A program made the translations under genes and the position numbers. Source: Candidatus Iainarchaeum sp. (lineage in GTDB: Archaea > Iainarchaeota > Iainarchaeia > Iainarchaeales > JAAZKV01). From it: a DNA stretch of 64,000 bases. The stretch is taken from contig JAPLVR010000003.1 of assembly GCA_026397015.1 (NCBI GenBank), positions 283,280 to 347,279 on the forward strand, in the 5' to 3' direction. Below, piece after piece: positions 1,226-58,584 of the stretch; positions within the stretch are counted from its first letter, which is position 1, and each line of letters starts with the position of its first letter. The notes under the pieces were generated by a model, which saw only the letters and a list, made by a program, of their open reading frames with translations, was not told the origin of the DNA and searched no databases.

Positions 1226-1698
1226 AATTCGTTGTAAGCGAGCCAAAAACGAGAAAGGCATACAGCATGAACTCGGACAAAATAACTTTTGCCGGAAAAA
1301 AAATCGGCGAAGTGATAAAATTGGACGAGGTCGGGCTGCCCGGCTATGAAGGAAAAATAACCGGCGGAAGCGACAAACAGGGATTCCCGATGAACAAATC
1401 CGTTCAAGGGGCCATGAGAAAAAAAATATTCACAGGAAACGGAGTAGGCTTCAATGCCGAAAGAAAAGGCGAGCGAAAAAGGGTTTCAGTGAGGGGCAAC
1501 ACAGTAAGCGAAGAAACTGCACAGGTAAATCTAGTGGTGACAAAAGTTGGCTCTGTTGAACTGGACAAAATTCTGGCAAAGGGCGCTCCAAAAGAAGAGG
1601 ATACACTAACTGCAAAAGAAAGGGCTGTAAAAACAAGCCTCGAAATGGCCGGCAGTGCTGAACTCGGAGCCGCACCGAAAAAAACAGGCAGGCACTAA
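1222..1698 (+). CDS. rps6e: 30S ribosomal protein S6e (eS6)
   Basis: ITGGSDKQGFPM and GERKRVSVRGN motifs; conserved infB-rps6e-eif2g order. Confidence 0.96.
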   Translation: MKFVVSEPKTRKAYSMNSDKITFAGKKIGEVIKLDEVGLPGYEGKITGGSDKQGFPMNKSVQGAMRKKIFTGNGVGFNAERKGERKRVSVRGNTVSEETAQVNLVVTKVGSVELDKILAKGAPKEEDTLTAKERAVKTSLEMAGSAELGAAPKKTGRH

Positions 1699-1729
1699 AA
1701 ATAGTTCGAAAGAATTTGGGTTTGTTTTC

Positions 1730-1815
1730 GCGCTTCAGCGCTTGAAAACGGAAGCCAGGAGGCTTCATCCGTCGCCTAAGGCGACGGTTTTCGCCGGCCT
1801 TTTGTCAAAAGGCCG
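1730..1815 (+). promoter_or_regulatory. GC-rich cluster of four inverted repeats in the rps6e-eif2g spacer (candidate structured RNA)
   Basis: GCGCT-TC-AGCGC (1730-1741); GAAGCC-AGGA-GGCTTC (1751-1766); CCGTCGCC-TAA-GGCGACGG (1769-1787); CGGCCTTTTG-T-CAAAAGGCCG (1795-1815), directly before GAGGTG. Confidence 0.5.
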
Positions 1816-1825
1816 AGGTGGAACT

Positions 1826-3115
1826 ATGCAAAAAAAAGAAAAAACTGGGAAGGCGAAAGAAAAGAAGCCGAGGGCGGCGCACGCGAAAGCACTAAAAAAA
1901 ATAAAAGCGCACGCGCATAAAGAGAAACACAATAAAGGGGCGGCCGCACAGCCGGAAATAAATATCGGCATGATAGGCCACGTTGACCACGGCAAAACCT
2001 CGCTCACCAAGGCGCTCACCGGAAAGTGGTGCGACACGCACAGCGAAGAAATGAAGAGGGGAATTTCAATAAGGCTTGGATACGCCGACACCACTTTTTA
2101 CAAACTCAAAACGAATAACGGAATAATTTACAGCAATGACAAAAGCAAGGGAACGGTGATGAGCGAGAGATTGGTTTCTTTTGTTGATGCGCCAGGACAC
2201 GAAACCCTTATGACGACAATGCTGAGCGGAGCTGTATTGATGAATGGGGCGGTGCTTGTAATAGCGGCAAACGAAATATGCCCGCAACCGAGAACAGTCG
2301 AACATCTGATGGCACTTAAATTTGCCGGCGTCGAAAAAATTGTGGTGGCACAAAACAAAGTTGATTTGGTGGATGCGGAGAAGGCAAAACAACAACAGGG
2401 AGAAATAAAAAAATTTTTGAAAGAATACGGGTATGAAAACGCGCCGATAATTCCGACTGTTGCAAATTTCGGGACAAATATTGATTACCTTATAGAGGCG
2501 ATTGAAACGCACATCCCTACGCCGAAATATGAGTTGCACAAGGGGCTGAAAATGTTTATTGCAAGAAGCTTTGACATCAACAGGCCTGGAACAAAAGTCA
2601 AGGAAATGAAGGGCGCTGTTGTCGGCGGAAGCATAACACAGGGAAAAATAAAATTAGGCGATGAGGTCCAACTGTACCCGGGCATCAAGGGAAAAACAAT
2701 AACAAAAGTTATAAGTCTTGCAACCGATTCTGGAATGCTGAATGAAGCCGTTCCGGGCGGACTTATTGCGGTTGGGACTGAAATTGATCCGAGCATAGGG
2801 CAGAATGACAGGTTGAGAGGGCAAATAATCGGAAAGCCCGGTTCGATGCCTGAACCGACAAAAGTTGTTTTATTGAAATTAAATCCTTTTGAAAGAGCCG
2901 TCGCAATCGACCAAAAGGCGGAGATAAGAAGCAACGACATAATTGTTTTGACAATCGGAACAAATACCGCAATCGGAACGGCGGCGCAAAGTGCTGGCGG
3001 GAAAGTTATTGTTTCTTTGAAGAACGAAGTGGTTGCGGAGAAGGGAGAAAAAGTTGCGGTGAGCAAGAACTTAAATAACCAATGGAGGCTAGTGGCGTAT
3101 GGGGAGGTCTTGTAA
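1826..3115 (+). CDS. eif2g: Translation initiation factor 2 gamma subunit (aIF2-gamma)
   Basis: GHVDHGKT, RGISIRLGYAD, DAPGHE and NKVD motifs. Start moved to ATG 1826, after the SD-like GAGGTG (1815-1820). Confidence 0.96.
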   Translation: MQKKEKTGKAKEKKPRAAHAKALKKIKAHAHKEKHNKGAAAQPEINIGMIGHVDHGKTSLTKALTGKWCDTHSEEMKRGISIRLGYADTTFYKLKTNNGIIYSNDKSKGTVMSERLVSFVDAPGHETLMTTMLSGAVLMNGAVLVIAANEICPQPRTVEHLMALKFAGVEKIVVAQNKVDLVDAEKAKQQQGEIKKFLKEYGYENAPIIPTVANFGTNIDYLIEAIETHIPTPKYELHKGLKMFIARSFDINRPGTKVKEMKGAVVGGSITQGKIKLGDEVQLYPGIKGKTITKVISLATDSGMLNEAVPGGLIAVGTEIDPSIGQNDRLRGQIIGKPGSMPEPTKVVLLKLNPFERAVAIDQKAEIRSNDIIVLTIGTNTAIGTAAQSAGGKVIVSLKNEVVAEKGEKVAVSKNLNNQWRLVAYGEVL

Positions 3116-3491
3116 GGTTTTATTGGACACAAATTTTCTCCTCGGCATCGCAAGGCTAAAAATCGATGTTTTCGGGGAAATAAAAAACAAATTTTCGGAA
3201 AACGGGGTTGAAACGGAATTTTTTGTGCTTGGCGGCGTAATGGATGAATTGAAAAAATTGGGTGCGAATAAAACGCTGGAAAAGGGGGCAAAAATAGCAA
3301 AAAAATTGCTTGATGGGAACGGCGCAAAGGTGTTGGACGACAAGGGCGATGTGGACACATTATTAGCCGAAAAAAGCCCGGAATACTGGATCGCAACCAA
3401 CGATAGTGCACTTAGAAAAAAGATAAAAAGCTTTGGAGGAAGAACCATATACATCAGAAAAAGGTCTTTTGTCGAAATAGATGGCATTTAA
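3099..3491 (+). CDS. PIN domain ribonuclease (Fcf1/Utp24-like)
   Basis: VLLDTNFL, V.DEL, DVD and IATND.ALR PIN motifs; usual neighbour of eif2g and rpoE. Confidence 0.88.
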   Translation: MGRSCKVLLDTNFLLGIARLKIDVFGEIKNKFSENGVETEFFVLGGVMDELKKLGANKTLEKGAKIAKKLLDGNGAKVLDDKGDVDTLLAEKSPEYWIATNDSALRKKIKSFGGRTIYIRKRSFVEIDGI

Positions 3492-3587
3492 ATCACTGAT
3501 GTTTTTAAAGTTTTTCAGAGTTTAATTTGTTGTTTAATTGGTTGTTTTTATTATTTGAAAAATTGTTTCGAAGCGAAAGGTGAGCAA

Positions 3588-4232
3588 ATGTACTACAAAA
3601 CAAAAATAATTGATAAGGTGAGGGTCCCTCCAAAAAATCTTGGGGCGAAAATAAAGGAATCAATACTGGGAATATGCAAGGAAGATTACGAAGGAAGAAT
3701 AAATGACGAATATGGAATAATCGTTGCCATAACGGGAATAGGCAAAGTTGGGGACGGGCACGTAATACCCGGAGACGGCGCGGTTTATTATGAAACTGAG
3801 ATAGAAATGCTGACATACAAGCCGCACATACAGGAAATCACAAGAGGAGTTATAACTGAAGTAACCGAGTTCGGCGCATTTGCAAGAATCGGGCCGATTG
3901 AAGGATTGATACACGTGAGCCAAATAATGGACGATTACATAAATTATGACGCGAAGCTGCCGGGATTTGTCGGAAAGAAAACCGGAAAAAAACTTGTCGG
4001 AGAGGATTCGGTGCTGACCAGGGTCGTAACAATTTCAATGAAGGGGCACACGCCAAGCTCCAAAATAGGATTGACAATGAGGCAGCCTTTCCTCGGAAAA
4101 CCGGAATGGGAAAAAATTGATGATAAGCTTGCAAAATCTATAAAGGATGAGAAGGGAAAGAAAGGAAAGGCGCCTGTTGTGGAAAAAGCCGAGAAGGCGA
4201 AGAAAAAAGAAAAAGAGGCCGAAAAGAAATGA
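3588..4232 (+). CDS. rpoE1: DNA-directed RNA polymerase subunit E' (Rpo7)
   Basis: VRVPP, GDGAVY, FGAF.RIGPIEGLIHVSQIMDD and KIGLTMRQPFLGK; ATG 3588 follows AGGTGA. Confidence 0.96.
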   Translation: MYYKTKIIDKVRVPPKNLGAKIKESILGICKEDYEGRINDEYGIIVAITGIGKVGDGHVIPGDGAVYYETEIEMLTYKPHIQEITRGVITEVTEFGAFARIGPIEGLIHVSQIMDDYINYDAKLPGFVGKKTGKKLVGEDSVLTRVVTISMKGHTPSSKIGLTMRQPFLGKPEWEKIDDKLAKSIKDEKGKKGKAPVVEKAEKAKKKEKEAEKK

Positions 4233-4423
4233 TAAAAGAGAAGGCGTGCAGAACATGCAGATTCATTGTTGAAGATGCGAAGGTTTGCCCAAACTGCGGC
4301 GGAAACACCTTCACAACATTCTGGAGAGGGTATATAGTAATAACAAAACCTGAAGAATCGGAGATAGCAAAAAAAATGGGAATAACAAAACCAGGCAAAT
4401 TTGCCCTGAGGCTCAGCAGGTAA
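4229..4423 (+). CDS. spt4: Transcription elongation factor Spt4 (RpoE'')
   Basis: ACRTC..CPNCG zinc ribbon; W.G.IVI..PEESEIAKKMGI..PGKFAL. Confidence 0.95.
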   Translation: MIKEKACRTCRFIVEDAKVCPNCGGNTFTTFWRGYIVITKPEESEIAKKMGITKPGKFALRLSR

Positions 4424-4526
4424 AAAAAAATTGTGCAAAAAAAGCTGGAAAAAATAAAAAAGGAAATTTAGGGAAAACAAAAAATGAAATTTAGGAAAAA
4501 TAAAAAAGAACTTAAAGGTGTGAAAA

Positions 4527-4892
4527 ATGAAATTGGATATAAAAACAAACAACAGGAATGAAACGCTGAAGAGAAACGAGGTGACGGTTGAAACCGAAGA
4601 AAAAGTAACCCCCTCAAGGGCCGCGCTCAGGGAAAAACTTTCGGCCGTTTTGAATGCTCCGCAGGAAAAAATAATTATCGACAAAATAGAAACAAAATTC
4701 GGGAGCCCGAAGGCAACTATTTATGTCAAGGTTTATGACAGCAGGGAACAGCTGAGAAAAATTGAGGCAAAACACATGCTGAAAAGAAATTTCAGGGAAG
4801 AAATGGAAAAGGAAGAAAAAGAGAAAAAAGAAAAGGCCGAAAAAAATAAGGCGGCGGAAAAAAAATCCGAAGAAGCTCCGCAGGCGGCATAA
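4527..4892 (+). CDS. rps24e: 30S ribosomal protein S24e (eS24)
   Basis: N..LKR.EV, TPSR and I.TKFG...A..Y.KVY motifs. Confidence 0.92.
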   Translation: MKLDIKTNNRNETLKRNEVTVETEEKVTPSRAALREKLSAVLNAPQEKIIIDKIETKFGSPKATIYVKVYDSREQLRKIEAKHMLKRNFREEMEKEEKEKKEKAEKNKAAEKKSEEAPQAA

Positions 4893-4923
4893 AAAAGTAA
4901 AAAACGGTTCAAGGTGAATTAAT

Positions 4924-5103
4924 GTGGCTGAAAAGGAAAAAAACAAAAAATTGAAATCAGAACTTTATTCTGTTACGCCCGAAGGGCTCAATAGAAAGGC
5001 GAACTTTTGCCCCAAGTGCGGAGCGGGAGTTTTCATGGCAAACCACAAAAACAGGCTCACATGCGGAAAATGCGGATACACCGAAATGAAAACTCAAAAA
5101 TAA
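4924..5103 (+). CDS. rps27ae: 30S ribosomal protein S27ae (eS31), missed by the ORF track
   Basis: Manual translation from GTG 4924 gives MAEKEKNKKLKSELYSVTPEGLNRKANFCPKCGAGVFMANHKNRLTCGKCGYTEMKTQK*; AGGTGA upstream; follows rps24e. Confidence 0.95.
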   Translation: MAEKEKNKKLKSELYSVTPEGLNRKANFCPKCGAGVFMANHKNRLTCGKCGYTEMKTQK

Positions 5104-5160
5104 TCGGAAGAATCCACACTTATTTAAAAAGAACAAGCCTATCTGTTTAGTCTGATTAAT

Positions 5161-5706
5161 ATGGGCGGAATAATTGAAATGTTCGCGATAGATTTCGTAA
5201 TGCTGTTATTGCCTCTTTTTTTTCTCAGGGCGGTAAAGGGGAAAGAATGGGGGGAAATCGAAAAAGAACTTCTTGGAAAGTATCAGGGAAATAAAAAAGA
5301 AATTGTGGGCGCTTTGGCGCTTTTCTCCGCCCTCCTCATAGGATTTGTAGTGATGGGCTCAATTATAAGTTTTCTCGGGATAAACGACCTGTCAAAAGTG
5401 CAAGAAGTGGTGGTGGAAACCTATTCCCGAAACGCGCCCGCACTAATATTTACCCTGTTGATAGGGGTTTTTGCGGAAGAATTTTTCTTCAGGGTTTTTC
5501 TGGTAAAGAGAACGGGCATACTGGTCTCAACAATAATATTCACTTTCGCGCACCTTGGTTACGGGTCGGCAGCGGAAACGATTGGCGTTTTCTTCCTTGG
5601 GTTGATACTCTCTTGCTGGTACAAGAAAAAAAAGTCGCTGTTCCAAAATTATTTCGGGCACATGCTTTACAATCTGTTTGCAATTACAATCTATCTGGTT
5701 GGGTAA
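5161..5706 (+). CDS. CPBP family intramembrane metalloprotease (CAAX/Abi)
   Basis: Multiple TM segments with EEFFFR, F..AH and H..YN motifs. Confidence 0.85.
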   Translation: MGGIIEMFAIDFVMLLLPLFFLRAVKGKEWGEIEKELLGKYQGNKKEIVGALALFSALLIGFVVMGSIISFLGINDLSKVQEVVVETYSRNAPALIFTLLIGVFAEEFFFRVFLVKRTGILVSTIIFTFAHLGYGSAAETIGVFFLGLILSCWYKKKKSLFQNYFGHMLYNLFAITIYLVG

Positions 5707-5742
5707 AAACCGCGCCGGACAAAAAATTGGCGGGCGAGGCTG

Positions 5743-6396
5743 ATGATTGAAATAAAAGAAAAAGAGTTCCTTTCCGGAAAAATGGATTCGAAAATAAGGA
5801 AGGCGCTTGAAAACGGGGCAATAATTATTTTTCCGAGCGAAAGCTCATATGGTTTTGGGGCGAACTGCCTAAATGAAAAAGCGGTAAAAAAAATTCATGA
5901 AACAAAAAAAGAAAGTTTTGACAAGCCAATCGGACTTGTAACTGATGATGTGAAAAAAGCAGGCCCGCTTTTTGAAATCGGGCAAAAGGAAAAAAAGCTT
6001 CTTGAGGCAAGGCTTTCCGGACCGCTTACAATCCTATTGAAAGAAAAGAAAAAAATGCCGTGCTCTTCCAACGGAACTGTCGGCATAAGAATCCCCATCA
6101 ATAAAACACTCCTCAGACTTTGCTCGCTGGCAAAATTTCCACTGACGGCGACTTCCGCAAACATCCATGGAGAAGAGGCAACCTTTTTACCTGAAAAAAT
6201 AATGGGCGCCTTTAGCGCGGAGAAGGATTTTATTTTTATAAACGCGGGAAAACTCGAAGAAAACAAACCATCCACATATTACGATCCGACCAACGGAAAG
6301 ATTCTACGGGAAGGAAAAGTAAAACTGGAAGAAATAAAAGGAGCACTAAGCAAAAAATTAATGCAGCAAAAAAGAGTATCCATGGTGATTGAATGA
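5743..6396 (+). CDS. sua5: Sua5/YrdC (TsaC)-family threonylcarbamoyl-AMP synthase, YrdC domain only
   Basis: FPSESSYGFG, GPLTILL, TVGIRIP, PLTATSAN, PST and ILREG; overlaps kae1. Confidence 0.85.
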   Translation: MIEIKEKEFLSGKMDSKIRKALENGAIIIFPSESSYGFGANCLNEKAVKKIHETKKESFDKPIGLVTDDVKKAGPLFEIGQKEKKLLEARLSGPLTILLKEKKKMPCSSNGTVGIRIPINKTLLRLCSLAKFPLTATSANIHGEEATFLPEKIMGAFSAEKDFIFINAGKLEENKPSTYYDPTNGKILREGKVKLEEIKGALSKKLMQQKRVSMVIE

Positions 6397-7373
6397 AATG
6401 CTTTGCAATAGAATCAACGGCGCATACATTCGGCGCCGCAGTTGTGGATGAAAAATGCAATATTCTTTCAAACGAAAAAAGTGTATATACAACGGAAAAA
6501 GGGGGGATGATTCCGAGGGAACTTGCGGAGCACCACTACAAATGCGCACCAAAAGTTGTTGCGGGCGCACTTGAAAAGGCGAACTGCAAAATGAGTGAAA
6601 TTGATCTGGTTGCCTTCTCGCAGGGGCCGGGAATAGGAAACGCGCTGAAGTGCGGGGCAATAGCGGCGAGGCAGCTTTCATTGTTGCACAATATCCCGCT
6701 AATCGGAGTGAATCACTGCGTCGCGCACGTGGAAATCGGGAGGAAACTTTGCGGAGCGAAAGATCCTGTTTTGTTGTACGCGAGCGGAGCGAACACGCAA
6801 ATAATCTGCTTTGAAAATTCTTATTACCGCGTATTTGGGGAAACGCTGGATGTGGGAATAGGAAATTTTTTGGATTCATTTGGAAGGGAATTAGGGCTGG
6901 GTTTTCCGGCCGGACCGGCGCTGGACAAAATGTATTTTGAGGGCAAAAAATACATCGAATTGCCTTACACTGTAAAGGGAATGGACCTTGCGTTTTCAGG
7001 GCTTTTCACGGCTGCGAAAAACAAAATCGGAAAAGTAAGGAAAGAAGATTTGGTTTACTCGGCGCTGCACAATGCGTTTGCGATGCTCACGGAAGTAACT
7101 GAAAGGGCGCTGGCGCACACGGAAAAAAAAGAGGTAATACTCGGCGGAGGAGTGGGGTGTTCGCGCGCGCTGCAGGAAATGATTTCAAAAATGTGCGAGG
7201 AGCGCGGAGCAAAGCTCTTCGTTCCTCCGAATTCGGTTATGGTGGATAATGCCGCGCAAATTGGTTGGACCGGCATACTGATGTATAAACATGGAAATAA
7301 AACAAAAATAGGCGATTCAATTATTCTGCCAAAGCAGAGAACTGATGATGTTAAAGTGAATTGGAGAAAATAA
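6393..7373 (+). CDS. kae1: tRNA N6-adenosine threonylcarbamoyltransferase Kae1 (KEOPS)
   Basis: IESTAHT, FSQGPG, VNHCVAHVE, SGANTQ, GETLD and DNAAQI. Confidence 0.96.
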   Translation: MKCFAIESTAHTFGAAVVDEKCNILSNEKSVYTTEKGGMIPRELAEHHYKCAPKVVAGALEKANCKMSEIDLVAFSQGPGIGNALKCGAIAARQLSLLHNIPLIGVNHCVAHVEIGRKLCGAKDPVLLYASGANTQIICFENSYYRVFGETLDVGIGNFLDSFGRELGLGFPAGPALDKMYFEGKKYIELPYTVKGMDLAFSGLFTAAKNKIGKVRKEDLVYSALHNAFAMLTEVTERALAHTEKKEVILGGGVGCSRALQEMISKMCEERGAKLFVPPNSVMVDNAAQIGWTGILMYKHGNKTKIGDSIILPKQRTDDVKVNWRK

Positions 7374-7391
7374 CTTGTGGGATTTGGAAAA

Positions 7392-7991
7392 CTATTTTCT
7401 TCTCTTTTTCGCGATTCTTTTTTTCTTCTTGGGTCTTGGCGCGGCTTTTTTCCCGGACTGTCTAGCGGGCCTGATTTTTGACTGCAAAAAGCCCTGCCCA
7501 TAAACCGCACGCCTGAAGGGTTTCGTGTGCGAAAAAATTATCATTCCGAAAGTGAGAAGACCCAGGAAACCTATGAAATTATAGGGAAAAGGAACGATGT
7601 TTACTTCCGGGTCGAGGTAAACGTAAATGCTCATTGCAATTACGGAGGCGAAAGCGAATTCCGCAATCCAGAGCACGATTATTTCAGTGCGAATGCCTAA
7701 AATTTTTCTTTTTGCCGAACCCAAAATTATTTTTGAAAATCCTTTGTGAACTTCTGCAACAGTTTTATCTTTCTTTACAACAACAATTTGGCCGATTGAG
7801 AGAAGGAAAACTGCAAGGAAAAGAAGAATTGCCGAATCGAAAAGGGTTGATTCAAAAGAAAGGAAAGATACAAAATTTGTTCCAAGGAGGGCTTTTACAA
7901 TATTTTTTACCTGGAGGACAATTATAAGTGCCAAAAGCACTTCCAGAAAAATAAATGCAGTTGCCTGTTTCTTTGAAAGCATGCTAAACAA
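7392..7991 (-). CDS. Hypothetical membrane protein (about 4 TM, basic C-tail)
   Basis: Hydrophobic segments; fills the gap; no family motif recognised. Confidence 0.7.
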   Translation of the reverse strand: MFSMLSKKQATAFIFLEVLLALIIVLQVKNIVKALLGTNFVSFLSFESTLFDSAILLFLAVFLLSIGQIVVVKKDKTVAEVHKGFSKIILGSAKRKILGIRTEIIVLWIAEFAFASVIAMSIYVYLDPEVNIVPFPYNFIGFLGLLTFGMIIFSHTKPFRRAVYGQGFLQSKIRPARQSGKKAAPRPKKKKRIAKKRRK

Positions 7992-50090: not shown

Positions 50091-51995
50091 ATGCCTCAGA
50101 AAATTGAAATACTAAAGCATATTGAGGAACAGCTCAAAGAAACCCTGCCGGACAGGTGCGAGGTTTCAAAAATAGAAATGGAAGGGCCCGAAGTTGTAAT
50201 CTATACAAAAAATCCTTCCGCGTTTTTTGGAAACGACAACTTCGTTTCAAAAACGGCGTTCGCACTCAAAAAAAGAATTAACATAAGAACCGATAAAAGC
50301 CTGCTCGGGCCGGAAGAACAAACCAGAAAACAGGTTTTCGAATTGGTGCCGAAGGAAGCCGAGGTGAAGGACATTTATTTCAACGCGCCGTTTTCACAGG
50401 TCGTAATTGAGGCAGTGAAAAAAGGGATTGTAATAGGAAAAGGCGGGGAAATTTCAAAAAAAATAATTATGGAAACCGGCTGGACGCCTGAAATTCTGAG
50501 GGCGCCGACAAGCGATTCGGAAATATTGAAGGGTATAAGAAGGCACCTCCACACGCACTGCGACGAAAGAAAAAAATTCCTGTTAAAAACTGCGGAAGAC
50601 ATTTACACCCGGCCAAGCAAGGCGCAGCATGAATGGGTGAGGTTCAACGCGCTTGGGGGGTTTAGAGAGGTGGGAAGAAGCTGCATGCTGGTTGAAACGC
50701 CGCACACAAGATTGATGATGGATGCGGGAATAAACATGAGCCAGGATGACCCTTATCCTTACCTTGATGCGCTTGGATATCCTCTCACAGAACTTGATGC
50801 TGTTGTGATTTCACACGCGCACATCGACCACTCGGGATTACTGCCTTACCTTTACAGATTGGGATTTGAAGGGCCGACATACTGCACGGAACCGACAAGA
50901 GATTTGATGACGCTGCTGCAATTTGATTACATTGATGTTGGGATTACGAATGAAAAGGAAGCCCCTTTCGGAGAAAGGGACGTGAAAAATGCGTTGCTCC
51001 ACACGATTCCGAGGGATTACAGGGAAGTTACCGACATCGCGCCCGACATGAGATTGACTCTGCACAATGCGGCGCATATTTTAGGTTCAAGTTCCGTGCA
51101 TTTGAACATCGGAGAAGGCGCGCACAACCTTGTTTACAGTGCGGACATAAAATACGGTTTTACAAGATTGTTCAACAATCTTGACATAAAGTATCCGAGA
51201 ATTGAGACGCTTGTAATTGAAAGCACCTACGGTTCAAAGGACGCAATACAAATGCCGAGGGAAATCGCGGAGCAGAAGCTGCTTGAAATAATACAGGAAA
51301 CGACGCAATTCGGCGGCAACGTTTTGATTCCGGTTTTCGGAGTCGGAAGGGGGCAGGAAATCGCGCTTGTAATTGAAAATTTTTACAAGCAGGGAATTTT
51401 AACTGACCAAAACAAAATTTACATTGACGGAATGATAAGAGAAGCTTCTGCAATACACACTGCGTACCCTGAACAATTGAGGAAAAGCCTTGAGAGAAGA
51501 ATACTTACAAACGATTCTCCATTTGATTCGCCGATATTCAAGGTTGCGAAACGCGAGGACAGGGAGAAAATAATTAAGGAAAGCGGGGCGGTAATAATTT
51601 CCACATCGGGAATGATGCAAGGGGGCCCAATAATTGAATATTTTAACGCAATGGCCGAGAACCCGTCAAACACTTTGGTGTTCGTTGGTTATTTGGCTGA
51701 AGGGACGCTTGGAAGGAGAATACAGCAGGGAATGCGAAGCCTGCCGATAATACAGAACGGCAAAACAAAAAAATTGGAAGTTAAAATGAAAATTGAAACG
51801 GTTGACGGATTTTCCGGGCACAGCGACTTCAACCAGCTTTCTGCTTATGTCGGCGCATTGAAGCCGAGCCCGAAAAGAATTTTGGTTGGGCACGGGGACC
51901 CCGCGAGAAGCGTCGAATTTTCGAGGTACCTCGCCGGAAGGTACAAAATCAATTCCACTTCAATCAGAAACCTCGACGCGGTGAGGCTCAAATAA
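50091..51995 (+). CDS. fttA: Beta-CASP ribonuclease aCPSF1 (transcription termination factor FttA)
   Basis: N-terminal KH domains, LGGFREVGRS, SHAHIDHSG, AHILGS, ESTYG and FSGHSD; conserved psmB neighbour. Confidence 0.96.
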   Translation: MPQKIEILKHIEEQLKETLPDRCEVSKIEMEGPEVVIYTKNPSAFFGNDNFVSKTAFALKKRINIRTDKSLLGPEEQTRKQVFELVPKEAEVKDIYFNAPFSQVVIEAVKKGIVIGKGGEISKKIIMETGWTPEILRAPTSDSEILKGIRRHLHTHCDERKKFLLKTAEDIYTRPSKAQHEWVRFNALGGFREVGRSCMLVETPHTRLMMDAGINMSQDDPYPYLDALGYPLTELDAVVISHAHIDHSGLLPYLYRLGFEGPTYCTEPTRDLMTLLQFDYIDVGITNEKEAPFGERDVKNALLHTIPRDYREVTDIAPDMRLTLHNAAHILGSSSVHLNIGEGAHNLVYSADIKYGFTRLFNNLDIKYPRIETLVIESTYGSKDAIQMPREIAEQKLLEIIQETTQFGGNVLIPVFGVGRGQEIALVIENFYKQGILTDQNKIYIDGMIREASAIHTAYPEQLRKSLERRILTNDSPFDSPIFKVAKREDREKIIKESGAVIISTSGMMQGGPIIEYFNAMAENPSNTLVFVGYLAEGTLGRRIQQGMRSLPIIQNGKTKKLEVKMKIETVDGFSGHSDFNQLSAYVGALKPSPKRILVGHGDPARSVEFSRYLAGRYKINSTSIRNLDAVRLK

Positions 51996-52139
51996 TTTTT
52001 GTTTAAAACCCGCTCAAATAACCACAAACAAGTTCAAACTCGAAAAACTGGAAAAAATTTGGGAAATAATCTTTTTCCTTTGGAAATAAACAATTCCCAA
52101 TAACTTTTTGCTTTTTTCGCAACGTTTCTTTAAATTTTT

Positions 52140-52619
52140 TTATTTTTCGTAAATCCTTTGGAGTTTTTCCAGCGCGGCCGAAATTTTTTCCAATTCTTGG
52201 TCGAAAGGGGCTCTGACCCAGGCGTCGAAAGAAGCGGAAAGCGACCCCCTTTTTTCGGAATAAGGGTTTGGGTTTATCGAGTAGCGGTTTTTCTTCCGCT
52301 GAATTATTCCCAAATCAACAAGCCGATTCAGATGATACCTTATAAGTTTCTCGCTCACCACAAAAGAATACTTTTTCTTAATTGACGCTTGAACATCAAG
52401 CGTTGTCGGCTTTTCCTTTTTCTTGAAAAGCAGCGAAAAAAGGGAGTCGAAAATTATTATCGCCTTGTCCCTGCTTTCCTTCGGAGAAATTAAGCCGAGG
52501 GAGAGGGAACACCAGCGGAGTAGGGACTTTTTTGTGAGCGTAACTGATTGCGGTAGGTCGAGCTGGCGCAAAATAATTTCCTTTCTAATATATTCCGCCT
52601 CGGGAATCACCTGTGCCAT
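52140..52619 (-). CDS. Winged-helix protein, paralog of 8629-9168
   Basis: LRWCSLSLGLISP.E and IRYHLNRLVDLGIIQR align with LAWICSSLGFFEP.D and TINHLNRLLKSGLIEK. Confidence 0.78.
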   Translation of the reverse strand: MAQVIPEAEYIRKEIILRQLDLPQSVTLTKKSLLRWCSLSLGLISPKESRDKAIIIFDSLFSLLFKKKEKPTTLDVQASIKKKYSFVVSEKLIRYHLNRLVDLGIIQRKKNRYSINPNPYSEKRGSLSASFDAWVRAPFDQELEKISAALEKLQRIYEK

Positions 52620-52738
52620 TATCCAAATAGAGCTGAAGAAGTTAAAAAACTATGGAAAAAGAGTTTTTCCTTAAATAATAAATTGTTCTAAAAATATTAA
52701 ACGCCGACTGAAAATTTTTACAAACAATAATCAAATCG

Positions 52739-53869
52739 TCAATTTTCTAAACGGACACACCGAGCACCGTAGGTGCCGCCATCGCTCTTACTGCCGAAGC
52801 CAAGGGTGCCGCCATTACTGGAATACAATCTGAACGCGCTGCCCGGACTCGACGGAACACTCGTACTAGACCAATAAAAAATACAACCGGTAAACCCGGA
52901 ATAACAAGTGCCTGTCTGATTATCATATATCAACCCAATCTCAATCTTAGTAGGCAAATGCCAATCATCATAACCAGCCAAAGACAAATTATTACAATAA
53001 TCCAAAGCACCCTGCCAAGTAACCGTAGAACCACTACTGCCTTTTTGCCACATCAAACCACTACTCAAATCACTCAAAGTAAAATTATCACTATTAACCC
53101 TCCAAACCCTCGCATAACTAGCACCATAAATATTACCATCCTCGCCAGTACCACTACAAGACCTAGGAGCACCGCCAGTATCCCAACAACCAGTCTGGCC
53201 AGTCATAGTTTGATAAAAAGAACCATTAAAACCAAAAATACTTGTTCCTAATTTAATCCTACTAGCCCTCAAATCAGGATCAACTGTACTCAAAGTATTC
53301 GCATCATAATAACCAGCACTCAAAACCGCAGAAGAAGGACTCAAATACTGAGTCGGCAAAGAACCATGCAACAAAGTACTAGAATTACCATAAAAACTAT
53401 ACCCGCTCAAAACCTTATCCACAACAGCATTACCATCATAACTACAAGAACCACCTTCTACCAAAGAACCATCAACACCAAAAATATTTACCCCTGATTT
53501 AATGTTTCCAACAACCAAATCAGGATCAACTGTATTCAAAGCAGTTGCGTCATAACAACCAGCCGAAACATTTGTTGAAAGAGGATTCAAAGTTTGCGGA
53601 CCACCACTGCAACTCGAACCACAACTACCCGGAACATTCCCTTTACATGAAACAGGATTTATTACTTCACAATTCGAGTCACTTGTCGGGCTGTCATAGC
53701 TGCAACTCTCAAAGCATTTTAATTTATCCAGTTCACTAGTTACCTCTTCTGGCTTTGGATTCGCAGAACTCCCAATACCCACTATCACTGCAATAACTAT
53801 TGCTGCAACCACCACTGCCGCGCCAATTATCAGAAGGTATTCCACTGCCCCCTGCCCTTTTCTTCCCAT
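52739..53869 (-). CDS. Class III signal peptide (pilin-like) protein with C-terminal DUF1566/Lcl (CLec-fold) domain; probable DGR target
   Basis: KGQG/AVEY plus hydrophobic helix; TGQTGC, D..SGLMWQ, W..A..YC..L.LAGYDDW.LPT..E, YWSST and ARCVR. Confidence 0.9.
   Translation of the reverse strand: MGRKGQGAVEYLLIIGAAVVVAAIVIAVIVGIGSSANPKPEEVTSELDKLKCFESCSYDSPTSDSNCEVINPVSCKGNVPGSCGSSCSGGPQTLNPLSTNVSAGCYDATALNTVDPDLVVGNIKSGVNIFGVDGSLVEGGSCSYDGNAVVDKVLSGYSFYGNSSTLLHGSLPTQYLSPSSAVLSAGYYDANTLSTVDPDLRASRIKLGTSIFGFNGSFYQTMTGQTGCWDTGGAPRSCSGTGEDGNIYGASYARVWRVNSDNFTLSDLSSGLMWQKGSSGSTVTWQGALDYCNNLSLAGYDDWHLPTKIEIGLIYDNQTGTCYSGFTGCIFYWSSTSVPSSPGSAFRLYSSNGGTLGFGSKSDGGTYGARCVRLEN
52751..52873 (-). other. 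Putative DGR variable region (VR)
   Basis: Codons between WSST and RCVR are mostly NNC/NNT (GGC x7, AGC, AGT, TTC, TCC, ACC, TAC, GAT, AAT), as expected from mutated AAC/AAT template codons. Confidence 0.6.
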
Positions 53870-53890
53870 AAAAATCATAACTATGTCCAA

Positions 53891-53938
53891 AAAGCAATAC
53901 TCGAAGTAACATTTAAAGTAATATTTGAAGTAATATTT
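53891..53938. repeat. Four 12-bp tandem repeats upstream of the DUF1566 pilin-like gene
   Basis: AAAGCAATACTC / GAAGTAACATTT / AAAGTAATATTT / GAAGTAATATTT. Confidence 0.75.
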
Positions 53939-53990
53939 AACACTTGCTATTGTAATTCAACGCCGGCTTTCGAATGTAAGCCCGATTGAT

Positions 53991-55634
53991 TTAAGTGAGG
54001 ATAAAATTAGTGAAACCCATTTTTATCAGCAGTTTTTCAACCGGAATCCTGAACTCGGCGAGGCACTCTTCCGAATAGTCGAAGCCGAGCTGCATCTTGT
54101 ATGTGCAATCCGAATTTCGCTGGCATTCGTCAATTGTGATGTACTTGAACATGGAACCCTGCGGAATGCGGGCGCGCAGTTCCGAAAGGGAAAATTTGTC
54201 GTTAGTTATTATCTTTATTTCTTTGGGGAGGGAGAAGAAATCGCATTCGAATTTCCACTTTATCGCGTACTGCATCGCCTTAATGTTGTTCGGCCAGGTG
54301 CTCACCTGCGCCAAAGTTGTTTCTTCTTTTGCCTCAATGAGAATCATTTCCTTTGAATCGCCAATTACCTTGAATTTGCTGAAATCCCTCAGCGCGTCAG
54401 GGGTAACATAAAATCTGTCGCCTTTTTTTATTGGCGCAGTCATTTCTTCGAAAGGGCCTATGTAATTCCTTTTGAAAAAAACATTGAGGAAGAAAATCAT
54501 TGAAATGAAAAAAATTAACAGAAAAATAACTGCTAAAAATCGCTTCCAATTTTCTTTCAATAAAACAAAAATAAAGTTTTTCTTTTTTTCACCTTTCTTT
54601 TTCTTCGCATTCAACCCCTCAAGTCCATACTTTATTTTTTGAATTAAATAAATCAAAAAGTAGGGAATGAGGGCGAAAGTGAGGAAACCCGAAAAAATAA
54701 TTAAGTTCATAATTACGCCGGTAATCATCAGGTCAAACGGGTAACCGCCACTAATGAGGTAAATTGTCGCTGGAATTAGGTTGAAAATAAAGGTTGGAAG
54801 AAAACAAAATTTGAAGTAATTTTTAACCGGCGAGAAAATTGTTTTTGGGTTTCCTAAGAGAAGATAGAGGAAGAAGGGCGCGCCCACGAGGAAGTCTTCG
54901 GTGAAGATACCGCCGTCGATGATTGTTTTTGTGACAAGGAAAAAGGCGCACACGAAAAGCCATGTTAAAGGAAACAAAATTTCTTTCGGCCATTTTTTTA
55001 CGAACCTCGAAAACAAGAAAATGCTGCATAATAAAAAGGCGGCGTAAAAAATGAATGCGAGGAACCACACGGGAAAAAACCATTGTGGCATGAAATCGAC
55101 CAGCGCCAAATCCAAGCCGTAAAAGTTTTCGATTCCGGGGAAAAGTATTTTCAACGGGAGAAGGAGGGGCTTCATCACGTGATTATGCGTCATGCTGGTG
55201 ACGCTTAGAACGGGTGCGTTTGTGGAATAAACCAAATACGAAAGCGTAAAAGGGGAAAGATTATTGTAGTCGGAATAAACCATGAATGAAAAGATGTTCA
55301 GGAAACCCAAAACAACTAGCAGCAGAACAACGAGAAAACTCAGGAACGCGATTCTTTTTTCCAAAACTTCTTTCATGCCTTCCAATTTTTCAAAAAAAGA
55401 AAAAAATTTTATGGGCTTTGAACCAATTTTTCGATTTGTTTTGATTTTTTGTTTTTGTTGCGCGCGGAAAACAATAAAAAAACAAATCCCAAAAATTACC
55501 AAAAATAAAAGGACCTTTGAATTTGAATAGGCTTTGAAAAAACCCATTCCTGCAATGCGATACCACAAATCGAAAGGGGAAACAAACGCAAGCGCGAACA
55601 AGGCAAGCAACACGGCGAAAAACAGCCACATCAT
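53991..55634 (-). CDS. Polytopic membrane protein (about 10 TM plus C-terminal soluble domain)
   Basis: Phe-rich TM segments; loop motifs HNHVMK and KTIIDGGIF; function not recognised. Confidence 0.78.
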   Translation of the reverse strand: MMWLFFAVLLALFALAFVSPFDLWYRIAGMGFFKAYSNSKVLLFLVIFGICFFIVFRAQQKQKIKTNRKIGSKPIKFFSFFEKLEGMKEVLEKRIAFLSFLVVLLLVVLGFLNIFSFMVYSDYNNLSPFTLSYLVYSTNAPVLSVTSMTHNHVMKPLLLPLKILFPGIENFYGLDLALVDFMPQWFFPVWFLAFIFYAAFLLCSIFLFSRFVKKWPKEILFPLTWLFVCAFFLVTKTIIDGGIFTEDFLVGAPFFLYLLLGNPKTIFSPVKNYFKFCFLPTFIFNLIPATIYLISGGYPFDLMITGVIMNLIIFSGFLTFALIPYFLIYLIQKIKYGLEGLNAKKKKGEKKKNFIFVLLKENWKRFLAVIFLLIFFISMIFFLNVFFKRNYIGPFEEMTAPIKKGDRFYVTPDALRDFSKFKVIGDSKEMILIEAKEETTLAQVSTWPNNIKAMQYAIKWKFECDFFSLPKEIKIITNDKFSLSELRARIPQGSMFKYITIDECQRNSDCTYKMQLGFDYSEECLAEFRIPVEKLLIKMGFTNFILT

Positions 55635-55755
55635 GCAACACCAAAAAATGCGAAGGATTAAAAAAGCAGAGAGAAACCGCGCAACCCGCTATTAAAACAA
55701 GCGGTGCATGAAACAAAAATCCGGCTCAACAAAAACAACACCCCGCCAATACACA

Positions 55756-57756
55756 TCAACAATCAGGACACCAGCCACATTCACAACCATCAGTATCACC
55801 ACACCCCGGGCGGCGCAAATAATTAAAACCACCAGAATAGCCGGTGTTGCTGTAACAATACACGCCCTTGCCTATCTGATTGGAATCTGTGCTGGTCATC
55901 GTGCTGCCGGCAGGCGTGTAATAAAACTTTGCTGTAACCGCACGCCGCGCATTATCCACACAGGGGAAAATCAGCCCACTACTCTTACCCATCCTATCCA
56001 TCAAAAGCCCGGTGGTTTCCTCGGAATTAATATTAATATCCGGCGGGTCACGCGTGCATTTGTAATCATAATTCATATCCCCATTGCCAGTAGTTGCATC
56101 CCAACTAGCATAAGTAACGGTAGGCGCCTTCATCAAACCTTTCCAAGCCCCGCAAACATTACAACCCTCCCCACTCGGCCCAGTAGCCCTGATGCTCCCG
56201 TCATACATCCCGACCTGATTACCGTTAATATCCATCTTATTAACCTGCACCATGCTGTTAGAAATGTTCTTTATCAAGAACTGGATAATGCTGCCACTTT
56301 GGACACTTGGTAAAGAATTATAATCAATCCCGACCGCAGAAAAAATATGGAACGGCCAAAACTTCGCAGGGAAATAAAAAAAATCAGGGTCCTGAATATA
56401 ATCAAACGCACCCTCATAACCGTTGCCCGAATACCGACTCTCCTTGCATGGAATATTAACATCGTCAAAAAACTGGGAAGAACCATCGGCGAAAACAAAA
56501 TTAATATCAAGAACCTTCCAATAATTACCCCAAGAACCGATGCACCAGTCAGGCCAAGCGTCATCACTGAAAATCCCAATAGTCGCACCCGCGGAAACAT
56601 AAGCCCTCGGCGGCAACGAGGTGCACGCAAACTGGCCATTAAGGTCCCCACCAGTAATATTCGAATCCTTGGGAGAAGCCCCCTGCAAATACGATAAATT
56701 AATCACCTTACCCAAACTATCGGGCAACGAACTACCACAACCACCTGTCTTCGGATCTGAAACAGAATCTGAAATTTTATAATTCTGTGTCACAGTGCAG
56801 GAAGTGGAAGTTGCATTGCACATGTTGCCACTAGTCCCAGTCTTACCACCGCAGCTAGTGGTGCAGCCGGTGGTCCCTGTAACCTTAATCGAGGAGATAT
56901 TCTTGTCAACCCCGGAATTATTTTTGACAACATAGGCCATCGTTCTGGAAGAGCCCCAGTTGGTGTCCTCCGAAGTCGCAGCAATATCATGACCAGTAAG
57001 CTCAATCGCCATCAAACTCAATGGCGAACCGCACTGCGATAAGAAACTGCAATCCGAATCGTCACAATCAACACCATCATCGCAATCATTATCTATATCG
57101 TCAGAACAAAGGACCCAGGTATTCTCCGCGGCATCAGGATGAATGCTGGCGCTGGAATCATTGCAATCGGTGCTGTTTGTAACATAACCCGCTGGAGGAG
57201 TGGCGGAAGTTGAAGTAATCGAATTGGAATCTTCACCATAAGTATCGCCATCTTTATCACCGTAGTATGCGAAGGGGGCCTGGTCGGTGGTGCCGGTAAC
57301 ATCAGTTGCGCACCCAACATAAACAGGGGTTATTCCCATGAAAGAATGAACCAACTCGTAAGCATCAATGTAATTTATGGTAATACGATACTCCTCTGAA
57401 GTGCCGGTGCAGGGAACGAGGTTAGACAAATTGATGTTTGCCTCCTCGCTGGGATAGAGAACCTTATCTGTTATATCAATAGCGTTGCCGTTAATCACCA
57501 AAGAAGTTAAAGTTATTCTGGTGTCGGTTTTGTTCTCGAACTTCAGAATGCCGTCTCCATTTGAATCAACCGCCACGCCCTTCAAGGCAATCCCCTGAAT
57601 CAGCCAATAGGCTTCACTCTGAGCCTTGGTTATTGTCATGGCAGAATCGGGAAAACTCGAAATAATTGAAACAGCTACAAGGCCGAGGACGACGATGATT
57701 GCGAGCAAAATGATGTACTCTATGGCGCCCTGCCCTTTTTTTTCAATTCGAAACAT
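55756..57756 (-). CDS. Class III signal peptide (pilin-like) Cys-rich protein with MopE-like metal-binding repeat
   Basis: KGQG/AIEY plus hydrophobic helix; YYGDKDGDTYG..DCNDSSASIHPDAAE..C.DDIDNDCD.GVDCDDSDC. Confidence 0.88.
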   Translation of the reverse strand: MFRIEKKGQGAIEYIILLAIIVVLGLVAVSIISSFPDSAMTITKAQSEAYWLIQGIALKGVAVDSNGDGILKFENKTDTRITLTSLVINGNAIDITDKVLYPSEEANINLSNLVPCTGTSEEYRITINYIDAYELVHSFMGITPVYVGCATDVTGTTDQAPFAYYGDKDGDTYGEDSNSITSTSATPPAGYVTNSTDCNDSSASIHPDAAENTWVLCSDDIDNDCDDGVDCDDSDCSFLSQCGSPLSLMAIELTGHDIAATSEDTNWGSSRTMAYVVKNNSGVDKNISSIKVTGTTGCTTSCGGKTGTSGNMCNATSTSCTVTQNYKISDSVSDPKTGGCGSSLPDSLGKVINLSYLQGASPKDSNITGGDLNGQFACTSLPPRAYVSAGATIGIFSDDAWPDWCIGSWGNYWKVLDINFVFADGSSQFFDDVNIPCKESRYSGNGYEGAFDYIQDPDFFYFPAKFWPFHIFSAVGIDYNSLPSVQSGSIIQFLIKNISNSMVQVNKMDINGNQVGMYDGSIRATGPSGEGCNVCGAWKGLMKAPTVTYASWDATTGNGDMNYDYKCTRDPPDININSEETTGLLMDRMGKSSGLIFPCVDNARRAVTAKFYYTPAGSTMTSTDSNQIGKGVYCYSNTGYSGGFNYLRRPGCGDTDGCECGWCPDC

Positions 57757-57891: not shown

Positions 57892-58584
57892 TTAAGCGGG
57901 GCTGGTTGAAAATGGGCTGAAAATGTCTGCATATGCGGAACCCGTTGACTGAACACAATTAATGTACAAATCTTTTGTCCCTGTTTGAGTGTTGGAGAGA
58001 TTGTTTGAACTTGTGTAATTTATTGTGAGTGCCATAGTGGCCGCTGAACCAGGGACGCATGCCGTGAGCGAACACGCATTGAAAAGGGATACCCCTGCAG
58101 TTTCCCCCATTTGAAGAATAATATCTGGTGCAATCACAGAATTCCTGTTAGTCAAATCAAGCAAATATGTTCCATTTGCTCCGCCGGGCACGGCCTTTAT
58201 AAGATGATCATTCCAATCGCCGACCCCTCCTTCATGATGAGCGCTTGTTATTGCGCTGCCGCCCGCGAGGGTTATAGAGTCAATCGTTATTTTTTCCGCA
58301 CCGTTATTCCTTATTATCAACCCGAATGACATGGGTGAAGAACAATTTGCGCCCCAGTTCGCATCTTCATAACCGGAAGGCGCTATGTTCATCTGTGCCC
58401 CCAAAACTGCCACGGGGTAAGACGACATCCAGTATTGCGCGCTCGCATTCTGCGTAATCTGCTGGCTGGAACCGGAAAAGCCTGCGATGATGGACACCAC
58501 GACAAGCGCGATTACAACGATGATTGCAAGCATCACTATGTATTCGATCGTGCCCTGCGCGCGCCCGGAAAAAAAAGCCTTCAT
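57892..58584 (-). CDS. Class III signal peptide type IV pilin-like protein
   Basis: RAQG/TIEY plus hydrophobic helix and a single ~190-aa beta-rich domain. Confidence 0.88.
   Translation of the reverse strand: MKAFFSGRAQGTIEYIVMLAIIVVIALVVVSIIAGFSGSSQQITQNASAQYWMSSYPVAVLGAQMNIAPSGYEDANWGANCSSPMSFGLIIRNNGAEKITIDSITLAGGSAITSAHHEGGVGDWNDHLIKAVPGGANGTYLLDLTNRNSVIAPDIILQMGETAGVSLFNACSLTACVPGSAATMALTINYTSSNNLSNTQTGTKDLYINCVQSTGSAYADIFSPFSTSPA

Follow-up and report, generated by a model that had tools for sequence, protein, structure and literature searches.

A DGR-type variable region at the lectin tip of a pilin-like protein in Candidatus Iainarchaeum sp., and the probable orphaning of its gene

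The pilin-like protein encoded by P0001, a gene of Candidatus Iainarchaeum sp. (contig JAPLVR010000003.1), ends in a variable region (VR) of the DGR type. Homology to the template repeats (TRs) of related genomes confirms this assignment in the historical sense, as a region written by a DGR in the past. The VR lies in the CLec (Lcl_C) domain of a protein with a prepilin-like N-terminus, the same architecture that is the target of complete cassettes in genomes of the same family, and to that extent the original prediction, made from the letters of the window (the whole stretch of 64,000 nucleotides that was analysed), stands. We consider that P0001 is probably an orphaned, now static DGR target. 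The locus is composed of the following features.

52739..53869, minus strand: coding sequence of the pilin-like Lcl_C protein P0001, 376 aa, stop codon included (ORF list and translation, Pfam)
53777..53863, minus strand: class III (prepilin-type) signal peptide and hydrophobic helix, aa 3-31 (Pfam PF04021 and AF2)
53465..53566, minus strand: 34-aa repeat module, copy 1, aa 102-135 (sequence and alignment)
53219..53320, minus strand: 34-aa repeat module, copy 2, aa 184-217 (sequence and alignment)
52751..53080, minus strand: Lcl_C/DUF1566 C-type-lectin-fold domain, aa 264-373 (Pfam, AF2, Foldseek, profile search)
52743..52863, minus strand: variable region, 121 nt, including an IMH-like 3' end (homology to TR/VR pairs of relatives' DGR cassettes)
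52712..52742, minus strand: stop codon and short post-VR flank, homologous to relatives' VR flanks (84% identity to G016:C30, flank alignment)
52620..52711, minus strand: remaining intergenic DNA without GC hairpin, Avd, TR or RT (flank alignment, hairpin search)

The open reading frame starts with ATG and encodes 376 aa plus stop, with an alternative TTG start upstream at 53890 that would extend the product to 383 aa. Both predicted ends of the protein score above their Pfam cut-offs: Class_IIIsignal (PF04021) matches aa 3-28 (E 4.5e-7, 30.0 bits against a cut-off of 23.7) and Lcl_C (PF07603) matches the DUF1566/Lcl C-terminal domain (E 6.4e-18, 65.6 bits against 34.9). In the AF2 model residues 7-31 form a helix and the C-terminal block from residue 261 has a pLDDT of 83-93. 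The best Foldseek match of this block is the C-terminal domain of Legionella pneumophila Lcl (8q4e_A; E 5.6e-4, TM (target) 0.59; 119 aligned columns, 26% identity), with further matches to other C-type-lectin-domain structures, and a profile search against the PDB likewise retrieves 8q4e_A (E 7.3e-9). Fold and family are shared with Lcl, which unlike P0001 is a collagen-like bacterial adhesin without a pilin signal. The 34-aa repeat module that occupies part of the middle is also found in homologous Lcl_C proteins. By sequence, P0001 belongs with the archaeal type IV pilin-like proteins and carries an Lcl_C C-type-lectin domain at its C-terminus. Profile searches of the genome retrieve two Peptidase_A24 and five T2SSE homologues above cut-off as pilus machinery, and the class III signal is matched 13 times, eight of them above cut-off. 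We infer that the protein is displayed on a pilus and has an adhesive or ligand-binding role.

The evidence for a DGR origin of the tail comes from alignment with real template repeats. The VR aligns codon for codon with the TRs of relatives (four TR/VR pairs), and its mismatches concentrate where the template has adenine: against the TR of G016:C16 it matches 58 of 75 non-adenine columns and 17 of 43 adenine columns (Fisher p = 6e-5), and the corresponding p values are 0.003 with the TR of G007, 0.017 with that of G009 and 0.07 with that of G016:C30. For comparison, the cognate pairs of the relatives match at 67-73 of 72-73 non-adenine and at 20-30 of 39-43 adenine TR columns. Adenine makes up 18% of the P0001 VR, 18-27% of true VRs and 35-38% of TRs, and the A3 of the tail is 0.02, within the 0.02-0.05 of true VRs and far below the 0.29-0.41 of old static orphans of the family. 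The DGR signature is still unameliorated (A3 0.02, C3 0.39), and the last rewriting of the VR must therefore have been recent when measured against synonymous change. Such a fresh signature fits a DGR that is still present, and also a recent loss or transfer.

The base composition of the gene tells a related story. The final codons quoted in the original prediction agree letter for letter with the sequence, and the abrupt shift that it placed near 52870 appears in 60-nt windows as a change in GC from 0.38-0.42 to 0.50-0.63 from about 52880. GC is 0.593 in codons 333-373 against 0.407 in codons 1-332, and C occupies the third position in 16 of 41 codons of the tail against 19 of 332 before it (C3 0.39 versus 0.06, p = 2e-8). 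The predicted contrast between a GGC-rich tail and a GGT-rich body is real (GGC share of glycine codons 7/8 versus 6/43, Fisher p = 1e-4), but it is partly due to an atypical body: GGT accounts for 26 of the 43 glycine codons there and for 11% of glycine codons genome-wide (406 long ORFs), the T3 of the body (0.58) exceeds the genome's 99th percentile (0.43), and P0001 is the second most T3-rich of the ORFs of at least 150 aa.

How does the locus compare with intact systems? The same-family set comprised the cassettes of G016:C16, G016:C30, G009:C37 and G007:C3, together with those of G008, G148 and G151. In the first four, RVT_1 genes lie about 1 kb downstream of the target, TR/VR repeats of 79-92% identity stand 772-822 nt apart, and Avd-like ORFs are present (bAvd, E 4e-6), the order being pilin-Lcl_C target, Avd, TR and RT. 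Class III signal N-termini were found on the targets of G016:C30, G009:C37 and G007:C3, and the target ORF of G016:C16 as listed begins within the hydrophobic helix. P0001 shares with these targets the class III signal, the Lcl_C domain with C-terminal VR, a VR scaffold that ends in ARCVR, the IMH-like end and a short flank, and its identity to them reaches 60% over the C-terminal 160 aa, the nearest homologues being those of G016:C16 (60% over aa 218-376) and G008:C23 (60%). It differs in that Avd, TR, RT and the GC hairpin are all missing from the locus, in that its middle consists of repeat modules rather than of the relatives' middle domain, and in a VR that is one codon longer. The cassettes of G016:C16 and G009:C37 sit within a split-intein lonB, beside a homing-endonuclease-like ORF; by tblastn, lonB is uninterrupted in the P0001 genome.

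Downstream of the gene, homology to the intact cassettes ends about 27 nt past the stop codon; the last stretch of it (query 136-189, window 52765-52712) is 84% identical to G016:C30. A perfect GTGCCC-GNNA-GGGCAC hairpin stands 46-52 nt past the stop in four of six intact cassettes, with a weaker version in G007 and other 8-bp hairpins in G016:C16. This hairpin is absent downstream of the P0001 VR: the sole hairpin in 52620..52711 is AT-rich, has 7 bp and lies ~68 nt past the stop, and folding of the 136 nt downstream as DNA yields weak AT-rich stems only (z = -2.2). In phage BPP-1 such a hairpin is needed for efficient retrohoming (Guo, 2011, PMC3240598). In the relatives the hairpin precedes a T-run, and termination rather than homing could be its function.

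The assembly of the P0001 genome amounts to 898 kb in six contigs, each of at least 50 kb, and is about 85% complete. RT, Avd and TR had been reported missing from the window, and they are missing from the rest of the assembly as well. The RVT_1 profile gave no match in the genome at E <= 10; tblastn with the RT, Avd and homing-endonuclease-like ORF of the relatives recovered no RT or Avd and nothing beyond the VR itself; and no fragment of RT, Avd or TR was found at the contig ends. The DGR RT and Avd for which the original prediction had proposed a profile search were not recovered, the RT by profile and tblastn and the Avd by tblastn, and the TR-like second copy that it anticipated did not emerge from blastn-short, blastn at word size 7 or an adenine-tolerant ungapped scan of the six contigs, all of which returned self matches only. 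Because the genome is only about 85% complete, this does not prove the absence of a TR. A 159-aa downstream ORF was considered as a candidate Avd and rejected: it belongs to no Pfam family, does not resemble the Avd of the relatives and has a conserved counterpart in the congener G001.

Searches beyond the genome gave a similar outcome. Among 196 genomes of the order, VR and flank DNA matched at the IMH and flank only (best 84% over 54 nt), with no TR. The exact 23-nt IMH pattern had no match in any of the genome, metagenome and viral contig collections, and degenerate TR-like and VR-5' patterns had none in viral, metagenome and genome contigs, scans from which the records of the genome itself may be absent. 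None of 86 TR peptides, taken from the N-termini of 120 of 7,889 RT homologues (E <= 1e-30), fits the P0001 VR scaffold by eye. The protein collection held no near-identical VR variant, the next match being at most 60% identical. The original prediction had also looked to complete genomes, close relatives and A-specific variation for its test, and here the outcome is mixed: DGR RTs and TRs do occur in close relatives, but none cognate to the P0001 VR was found, and no A-specific variation was seen.

At the level of contigs, and among the pieces listed, four runs from two studies carry the same VR letter for letter. In both runs of the source study a single contig spans the gene with 0 differences, and the pieces listed include no contig with a variant VR; the second study contributes, from two runs, pieces 52690-53037 and 52833-52983, likewise with 0 differences among the pieces listed. 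The source runs had a depth of about 20 and the other two a depth of 2-6, and contigs drop rare variants. No evidence was drawn from the stretches that runs X3 and X4 leave uncovered, or from runs X5-X7, whose shares are small.

The gene appears to occupy a variable pilin slot. The flanks around the slot are conserved in the congener G001 (77-80% DNA identity), where other pilin-like genes stand in place of P0001, and no Lcl_C or RT occurs anywhere in the G001 genome; the next gene (52140-52619) is native, with 80% DNA identity to G001. Perhaps P0001 was acquired horizontally into this slot, and the transfer may have brought either the whole gene or its C-terminal ~275 codons. Other surface-protein genes of the same genome are T3-rich too, which makes the codon-usage case for horizontal transfer a weak one.

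Could the tail owe its appearance to something other than a DGR? An assembly or binning artefact, with the gene or only its tail stemming from another, DGR-bearing organism through a chimeric join, might be suspected from the codon usage of the body, which is atypical for the genome. We regard it as barely credible: two runs have independent 71-kb Logan contigs that agree with 51000-56000 at every position, synteny with G001 holds in the flanks, and the atypical usage extends over codons ~100-332 rather than being confined to the tail. It is also highly improbable that the shift in composition arose by chance or selection in an Lcl_C domain with no template repeat in its history. The family does include static Lcl_C pilins that lack a DGR (G012:C14 and G009:C36), and their VR-equivalent stretch is nearly identical across two genera. 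However, these genes lack the composition jump and keep an A3 of 0.29-0.41, against a tail A3 of 0.02 and a GC difference of +0.19 in P0001; the codon-for-codon alignment with real TRs, the bias of mismatches to adenine columns and the post-VR flank common to real VRs all speak for a template.

A more serious alternative is the one advanced by the original prediction, in which the protein is currently hypervariable as a remote (trans) target. The cognate Avd-TR-RT would then reside on an unassembled or unbinned short contig, a mobile element or a virus, rewriting would be occasional, and one selected allele would dominate the sampled populations. A cassette could have escaped binning, because the genome is about 85% complete, only contigs of at least 50 kb are included and five of seven relatives' cassettes lie on contigs of at most 8.7 kb; one of them is split exactly in the VR, between contigs G008:C23 and G008:C11. 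Conservation with bona fide VRs extends over the IMH-like 3' end and about 27 nt of flank, the codon signature is fresh, and remote targets have been documented for other DGRs (Wu, 2018, PMC5758913). Yet no RT, Avd or TR fragment came to light even at contig ends, the GC hairpin is absent, the pieces listed from four runs of two studies carry one and the same VR and include no variant contig, exact and degenerate patterns are unmatched in genome, metagenome and viral contigs, 0 of 86 TR peptides fit the scaffold by eye, and no trans pairing is seen in the four fully read cassettes of the relatives, each TR of which serves its own adjacent target. We therefore think this explanation rather unlikely; in its narrower form, with the cassette on an unbinned short contig or mobile element and a pilus-borne lectin tip hypervaried in trans without the usual hairpin, it is more doubtful still.

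For an orphaned, static target we envision the following scenario. Adenine-mutagenic retrohoming from an AAC/AAT-rich template repeat would have written the last ~120 nt of the Lcl_C domain, and the writing cassette would have resembled those that persist in genomes of the same family, with a pilin-Lcl_C target, Avd, TR and RT. The Avd-TR-RT module and the downstream hairpin would have been lost from the genome, or would never have arrived, and the sequence of the tip would therefore now be fixed. The protein might thus serve as an ordinary adhesin of the cell surface whose binding site is frozen in one variant.

Partial DGRs have precedents. In the DUSEL4 Nanoarchaeota, a target gene, a VR and cis elements have been described without an RT (Paul et al., 2015, PMC4372165). 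The resemblance to P0001 is close, in that a DPANN-type archaeon carries a VR with adenine-directed mutagenesis at an RT-less site, and the same two readings, fossil or remote diversification, apply. Unlike in P0001, whose genome yielded no DGR cassette, cassettes coexist in the DUSEL4 genomes (PMC4372165), and P0001 differs further in its pilin-like class III signal joined to Lcl_C and in the absence of the downstream hairpin. The remote targets of Treponema denticola and category 'd' DUF1566 targets, Legionella LdtA among them, are surface proteins that likewise end in a VR of the CLec2/DUF1566 type, and they illustrate the general idea of a target far from its RT (PMC5758913). These targets are bacterial lipoproteins, and the remote ones are assigned through a TR of the same genome with A-to-N differences only (PMC5758913); P0001 is an archaeal pilin-like protein, and no such TR was found for it. 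An earlier description of pilin-type archaeal DGR targets was not found in the literature searched, and one may exist. P0001 is an addition to the known target-only partial DGRs, described in Nanoarchaeota in 2015 (Paul et al., 2015, PMC4372165).

Taken alone, the P0001 window is a modest result, one more partial DGR. The setting gives it wider meaning. DPANN and CPR organisms commonly carry DGRs, whose presumed role is to tune the attachment of cells to one another; to our knowledge, the identities of their targets and the gain and loss of cassettes are poorly known. An A3-free tail of NNC/NNT codons is a signature that can tell recently written orphans from old static paralogues. DGR targets appear to be separable from the retroelement, and may survive in a variable pilin slot as adhesin genes that are intact and frozen. 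Within this one family of archaea, DGRs consistently act on type IV pilin-like proteins that bear a lectin tip, which would provide a concrete structural setting for the recognition of hosts or surfaces.

P0001, the pilin-like Lcl_C protein under study, is encoded by the only Lcl_C gene in its genome (898,628 bp in six contigs, about 85% complete; contig C5 ends with the window), within a same-strand run of class III signal genes:

57892-58584, minus strand: class III signal protein, 230 aa
55756-57804, minus strand: class III signal protein, 682 aa, rich in Cys, carrying a metal-binding motif of MopE type
53991-55634, minus strand: polytopic membrane protein, 547 aa, no Pfam family, between the P0001 gene and the other class III signal genes
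52739-53869, minus strand: P0001 coding sequence, 376 aa
aa 3-28 of P0001: class III signal peptide (Pfam, 30.0 bits against a cut-off of 23.7)
aa 264-373 of P0001: Lcl_C/DUF1566 domain (Pfam, E 6.4e-18)
52743-52863, minus strand: variable region (VR) of P0001, 121 nt, aligning codon for codon with the template repeats (TRs) and VRs of relatives

Together, these genes may form a pilin or adhesin operon. Given this gene run, and because the genome encodes two prepilin peptidases and five T2SSE ATPases, processing of P0001 as a pilin-like protein is plausible. An AF2 model built on a 23-sequence alignment has a mean pLDDT of 63.7, with low confidence at residues 33-138 and 193-221 and block means of 83-93 from residue 261 onward; in it, the VR occupies the C-terminal strands of a C-type-lectin fold. 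Among PDB entries, 8q4e, the C-terminal domain of Legionella Lcl, scores best (Foldseek E 5.6e-4; E 7.3e-9 by profile search).

Of 41 genomes (40 relatives plus the own genome), 9 have RVT_1 above cut-off, the own genome not among them, and 15 have Lcl_C at E <= 0.001; among 24 relatives of the same family, the counts are 5 (RVT_1, E <= 0.01) and 13. The proteins closest to the C-terminal half of P0001 are encoded on G016:C16 (60% identity over aa 218-376) and G008:C23 (60%), followed by G017:C50 (45%) and G011:C80 (43% over aa 102-375). Four loci (G016:C16, G016:C30, G009:C37 and G007:C3) share a gene order: downstream of the Lcl_C gene and in the same orientation come an Avd-like ORF (bAvd, E 4e-6, under the cut-off), a repeat and a reverse transcriptase (RT). 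The repeat is a direct copy of the 3' end of the Lcl_C gene, 79-92% identical to it at a spacing of 772-822 nt, and the RT ORF reads through it. Differences are nearly confined to adenines of the downstream copy: within cognate pairs, 71/73, 73/73, 72/72 and 67/72 non-adenine template columns match, as against 22/42, 30/39, 20/40 and 23/43 adenine columns. Such loci are DGR cassettes of the textbook kind. A class III signal peptide opens three of their targets (G016:C30, G009:C37 and G007:C3); in G016:C16 the listed target ORF starts within the hydrophobic helix. RT homologues 81-90% identical to a same-family RT bear the source names 'Candidatus Diapherotrites archaeon' or 'Candidatus ainarchaeum sp.', a hint at the placement of the family. 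Among 120 RT homologues listed (P0107-P0226), 86 annotated RTs start upstream of the TR and read through it, their predicted N-terminus repeating the Lcl_C tail in an Asn-rich version, in many cases with a precomputed PF07603 match.

Further cassettes are present in G148, G151 and G008, the last divided over two contigs exactly in the VR: the end of G008:C23 (locus L049) stops inside the Lcl_C gene, and G008:C11 (locus L019) opens on the last eight target codons with their stop, after which come Avd, TR and RT. This broken cassette illustrates how DGR loci escape binning. In G016 and G009, which belong to different genera, a cassette lies between two halves of lonB:

L045 (G016:C16:17000-25000), 1408-7554: split lonB with cassette
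L047 (G009:C37), 1-5608: split lonB with cassette

The N-half ends with an intein N-part, and the C-half opens with an intein C-part whose final HN precedes an S; matches to Intein_splicing are weak and sub-threshold (E 3e-4 to 0.06) but at the right ends. Between the G009 halves lies a 357-aa ORF, LAGLIDADG-like by eye, with no Pfam match. The arrangement looks like a 'fractured gene', in which a split intein would carry the DGR as cargo; among the literature matches listed, none treated such an arrangement, by title or start of abstract.

Does the tail of P0001 belong to this system? The original prediction of a DGR-type VR is borne out here. Against the closest TR (G016:C16), 58/75 non-adenine but only 17/43 adenine columns match (Fisher p = 6e-5); for the other three TRs the same bias has p = 0.003, 0.017 and 0.07. 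Heterologous VR-TR pairs among the relatives show a similar bias in most combinations (two pairs have p = 1), and what the comparison therefore indicates is descent of the tail from a TR that is related to, yet distinct from, those of the relatives; it makes none of the latter the template. Adenine content is VR-like (18%; true VRs 18-27%, TRs 35-38%). The VR is also fresh, written recently in terms of synonymous change: its third-position adenine fraction (A3) is 0.02, like that of true VRs (0.02-0.05) and unlike that of the static Lcl_C pilins on G012:C14, G009:C36 and G011:C80 (0.29-0.41, no GC jump). The G012:C14 and G009:C36 genes (loci L030 and L031) are orthologous orphans from two genera with ordinary codon usage and 3 aa differences in the 41 of the VR-equivalent stretch; they form a branch of the same family that is static and not diversified. 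A second VR-like orphan, on G017:C50 (L051), has A3 0.05, C3 0.27 and GC 0.46 against 0.38 in its body, and has neither the conserved post-VR block nor the GC hairpin of intact cassettes; no RVT_1 was found in the G017 genome (80% complete).

The final codons as originally quoted are identical to codons 333-373 (52751-52873), the 41 codons preceding the final LEN-stop, which we compared as tail with codons 1-332 as body. GGC accounts for 7/8 glycine codons in the tail and 6/43 in the body (Fisher p = 1e-4), third-position C for 16/41 and 19/332 codons (p = 2e-8), and GC is 0.59 and 0.41. The variable codons, with few exceptions NNC or NNT, are of the kind that AAC/AAT codons in a template would give. 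The composition jump noticed initially is thus real and not due to chance, but the body against which it was drawn is itself unusual for the genome, so that the contrast is the sum of two anomalies: GGT makes up 26/43 body glycine codons but only 11% across 406 long ORFs, T3 is 0.58 (genome 99th percentile, 0.43) and C3 0.06 (1st percentile, 0.11). The extreme T3-rich, A3-poor, C3-poor usage covers codons ~100-332 (52874-53569) and equals that of the four relatives' target genes (T3 0.62-0.66, C3 0.02-0.04). Across these five target bodies, T3 is 0.58-0.66 and A3 0.08-0.14; adjoining RT and Lon genes have A3 0.31-0.37.

We consider it probable that the P0001 gene is an orphaned DGR target, static in the sampled populations. 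The original prediction saw instead a live remote (trans) target; on that reading the cassette would now have to be an unbinned one. This is conceivable, in that the VR is fresh, the incomplete assembly comprises only contigs of at least 50 kb, and five of the relatives' seven cassettes lie on contigs of at most 8.7 kb; nevertheless, we regard it as rather unlikely. In the six contigs, neither blastn nor a scan forgiving all template-adenine mismatches detected the proposed TR-like copy, RVT_1 had no match even at E <= 10, and tblastn queries with RT and Avd from relatives returned only the VR itself. The lonB gene, the cassette site in G016:C16 and G009:C37, is continuous (C1:85449-87404). 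Homology to intact cassettes ends ~27 nt past the stop codon (54 nt at 84% identity to G016:C30), and 52140-52619, the gene that comes after P0001, is native, 80% identical at the DNA level to the congener G001. A perfect GTGCCC-GNNA-GGGCAC hairpin, a candidate homing element or terminator, lies 46-52 nt past the stop in four of six intact cassettes (the G007 cassette has a weaker version, G016:C16 other 8-bp hairpins), whereas downstream of P0001 this GC hairpin is absent and only an AT-rich 7-bp stem occurs at +68. In phage BPP-1, a hairpin/cruciform just 3' of the VR is needed for efficient retrohoming (Guo 2011, PMC3240598), and the tetraloop of such hairpins is typically GRNA (Paul 2015, PMC4372165).

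Population data likewise give no sign of ongoing diversification. In two source-study runs, one contig spans 51000-56000 with 0 differences and no alternative contig over the VR among the pieces listed; low-depth pieces from two runs of a different study (52690-52840, 52819-53037 and 52833-52983) also have 0 differences among those listed; all this is contig data, in which rare variants stay hidden. Near-identical variants are absent from the protein collection (next match <= 60% identity), exact and degenerate VR/TR patterns had no match in genome, metagenome or viral contig collections, and 0/86 TR peptides from the RT homologues listed fit the P0001 scaffold by eye. Set beside the codon-for-codon TR alignment, a tail of non-DGR origin is very improbable, and an assembly chimera, set beside the spanning contig, more so still.

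Fossil or remote diversification are the two alternatives that Paul et al. (PMC4372165) give for partial, target-only DGR loci in Nanoarchaeota, and the same two readings apply here; Wu et al. (2018, PMC5758913) catalogue remote targets assigned by TR matching and define DUF1566-type category 'd' targets. The P0001 locus therefore belongs to a known class. The literature searched yielded no description of archaeal DGR targets with a class III (pilin-type) signal, for which we claim no priority.

How might the orphan have arisen? G001 keeps both flanks of the locus (77-80% DNA identity), its slot is filled by two other pilin-like genes, and its genome contains neither Lcl_C nor RT. Just downstream, 52090-52140 is ~50 bp where G001 has ~1.4 kb (G001:C5:56317-57715) between an aCPSF1-type gene (FttA KH, beta-CASP) and a 159-aa ORF. 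The differing slot, and a body codon usage equal to that of targets from lower-GC genera (loci of 28-38% GC, against 40-43% in the own genome), suggest that a variable pilin locus gained the C-terminal ~275 codons through horizontal transfer or recombination. We infer this with reserve, because other surface-protein genes of the genome are also T3-rich (e.g., C5:2660-3304, T3 0.69). If the tail came in this way, the writing of its fresh VR signature could date from the donor. As an orphaned target, P0001 would be a lectin adhesin of pilin-like build; adenine-mutagenic retrohoming would have written its tip, and the gene would since have been separated from its Avd-TR-RT and hairpin.
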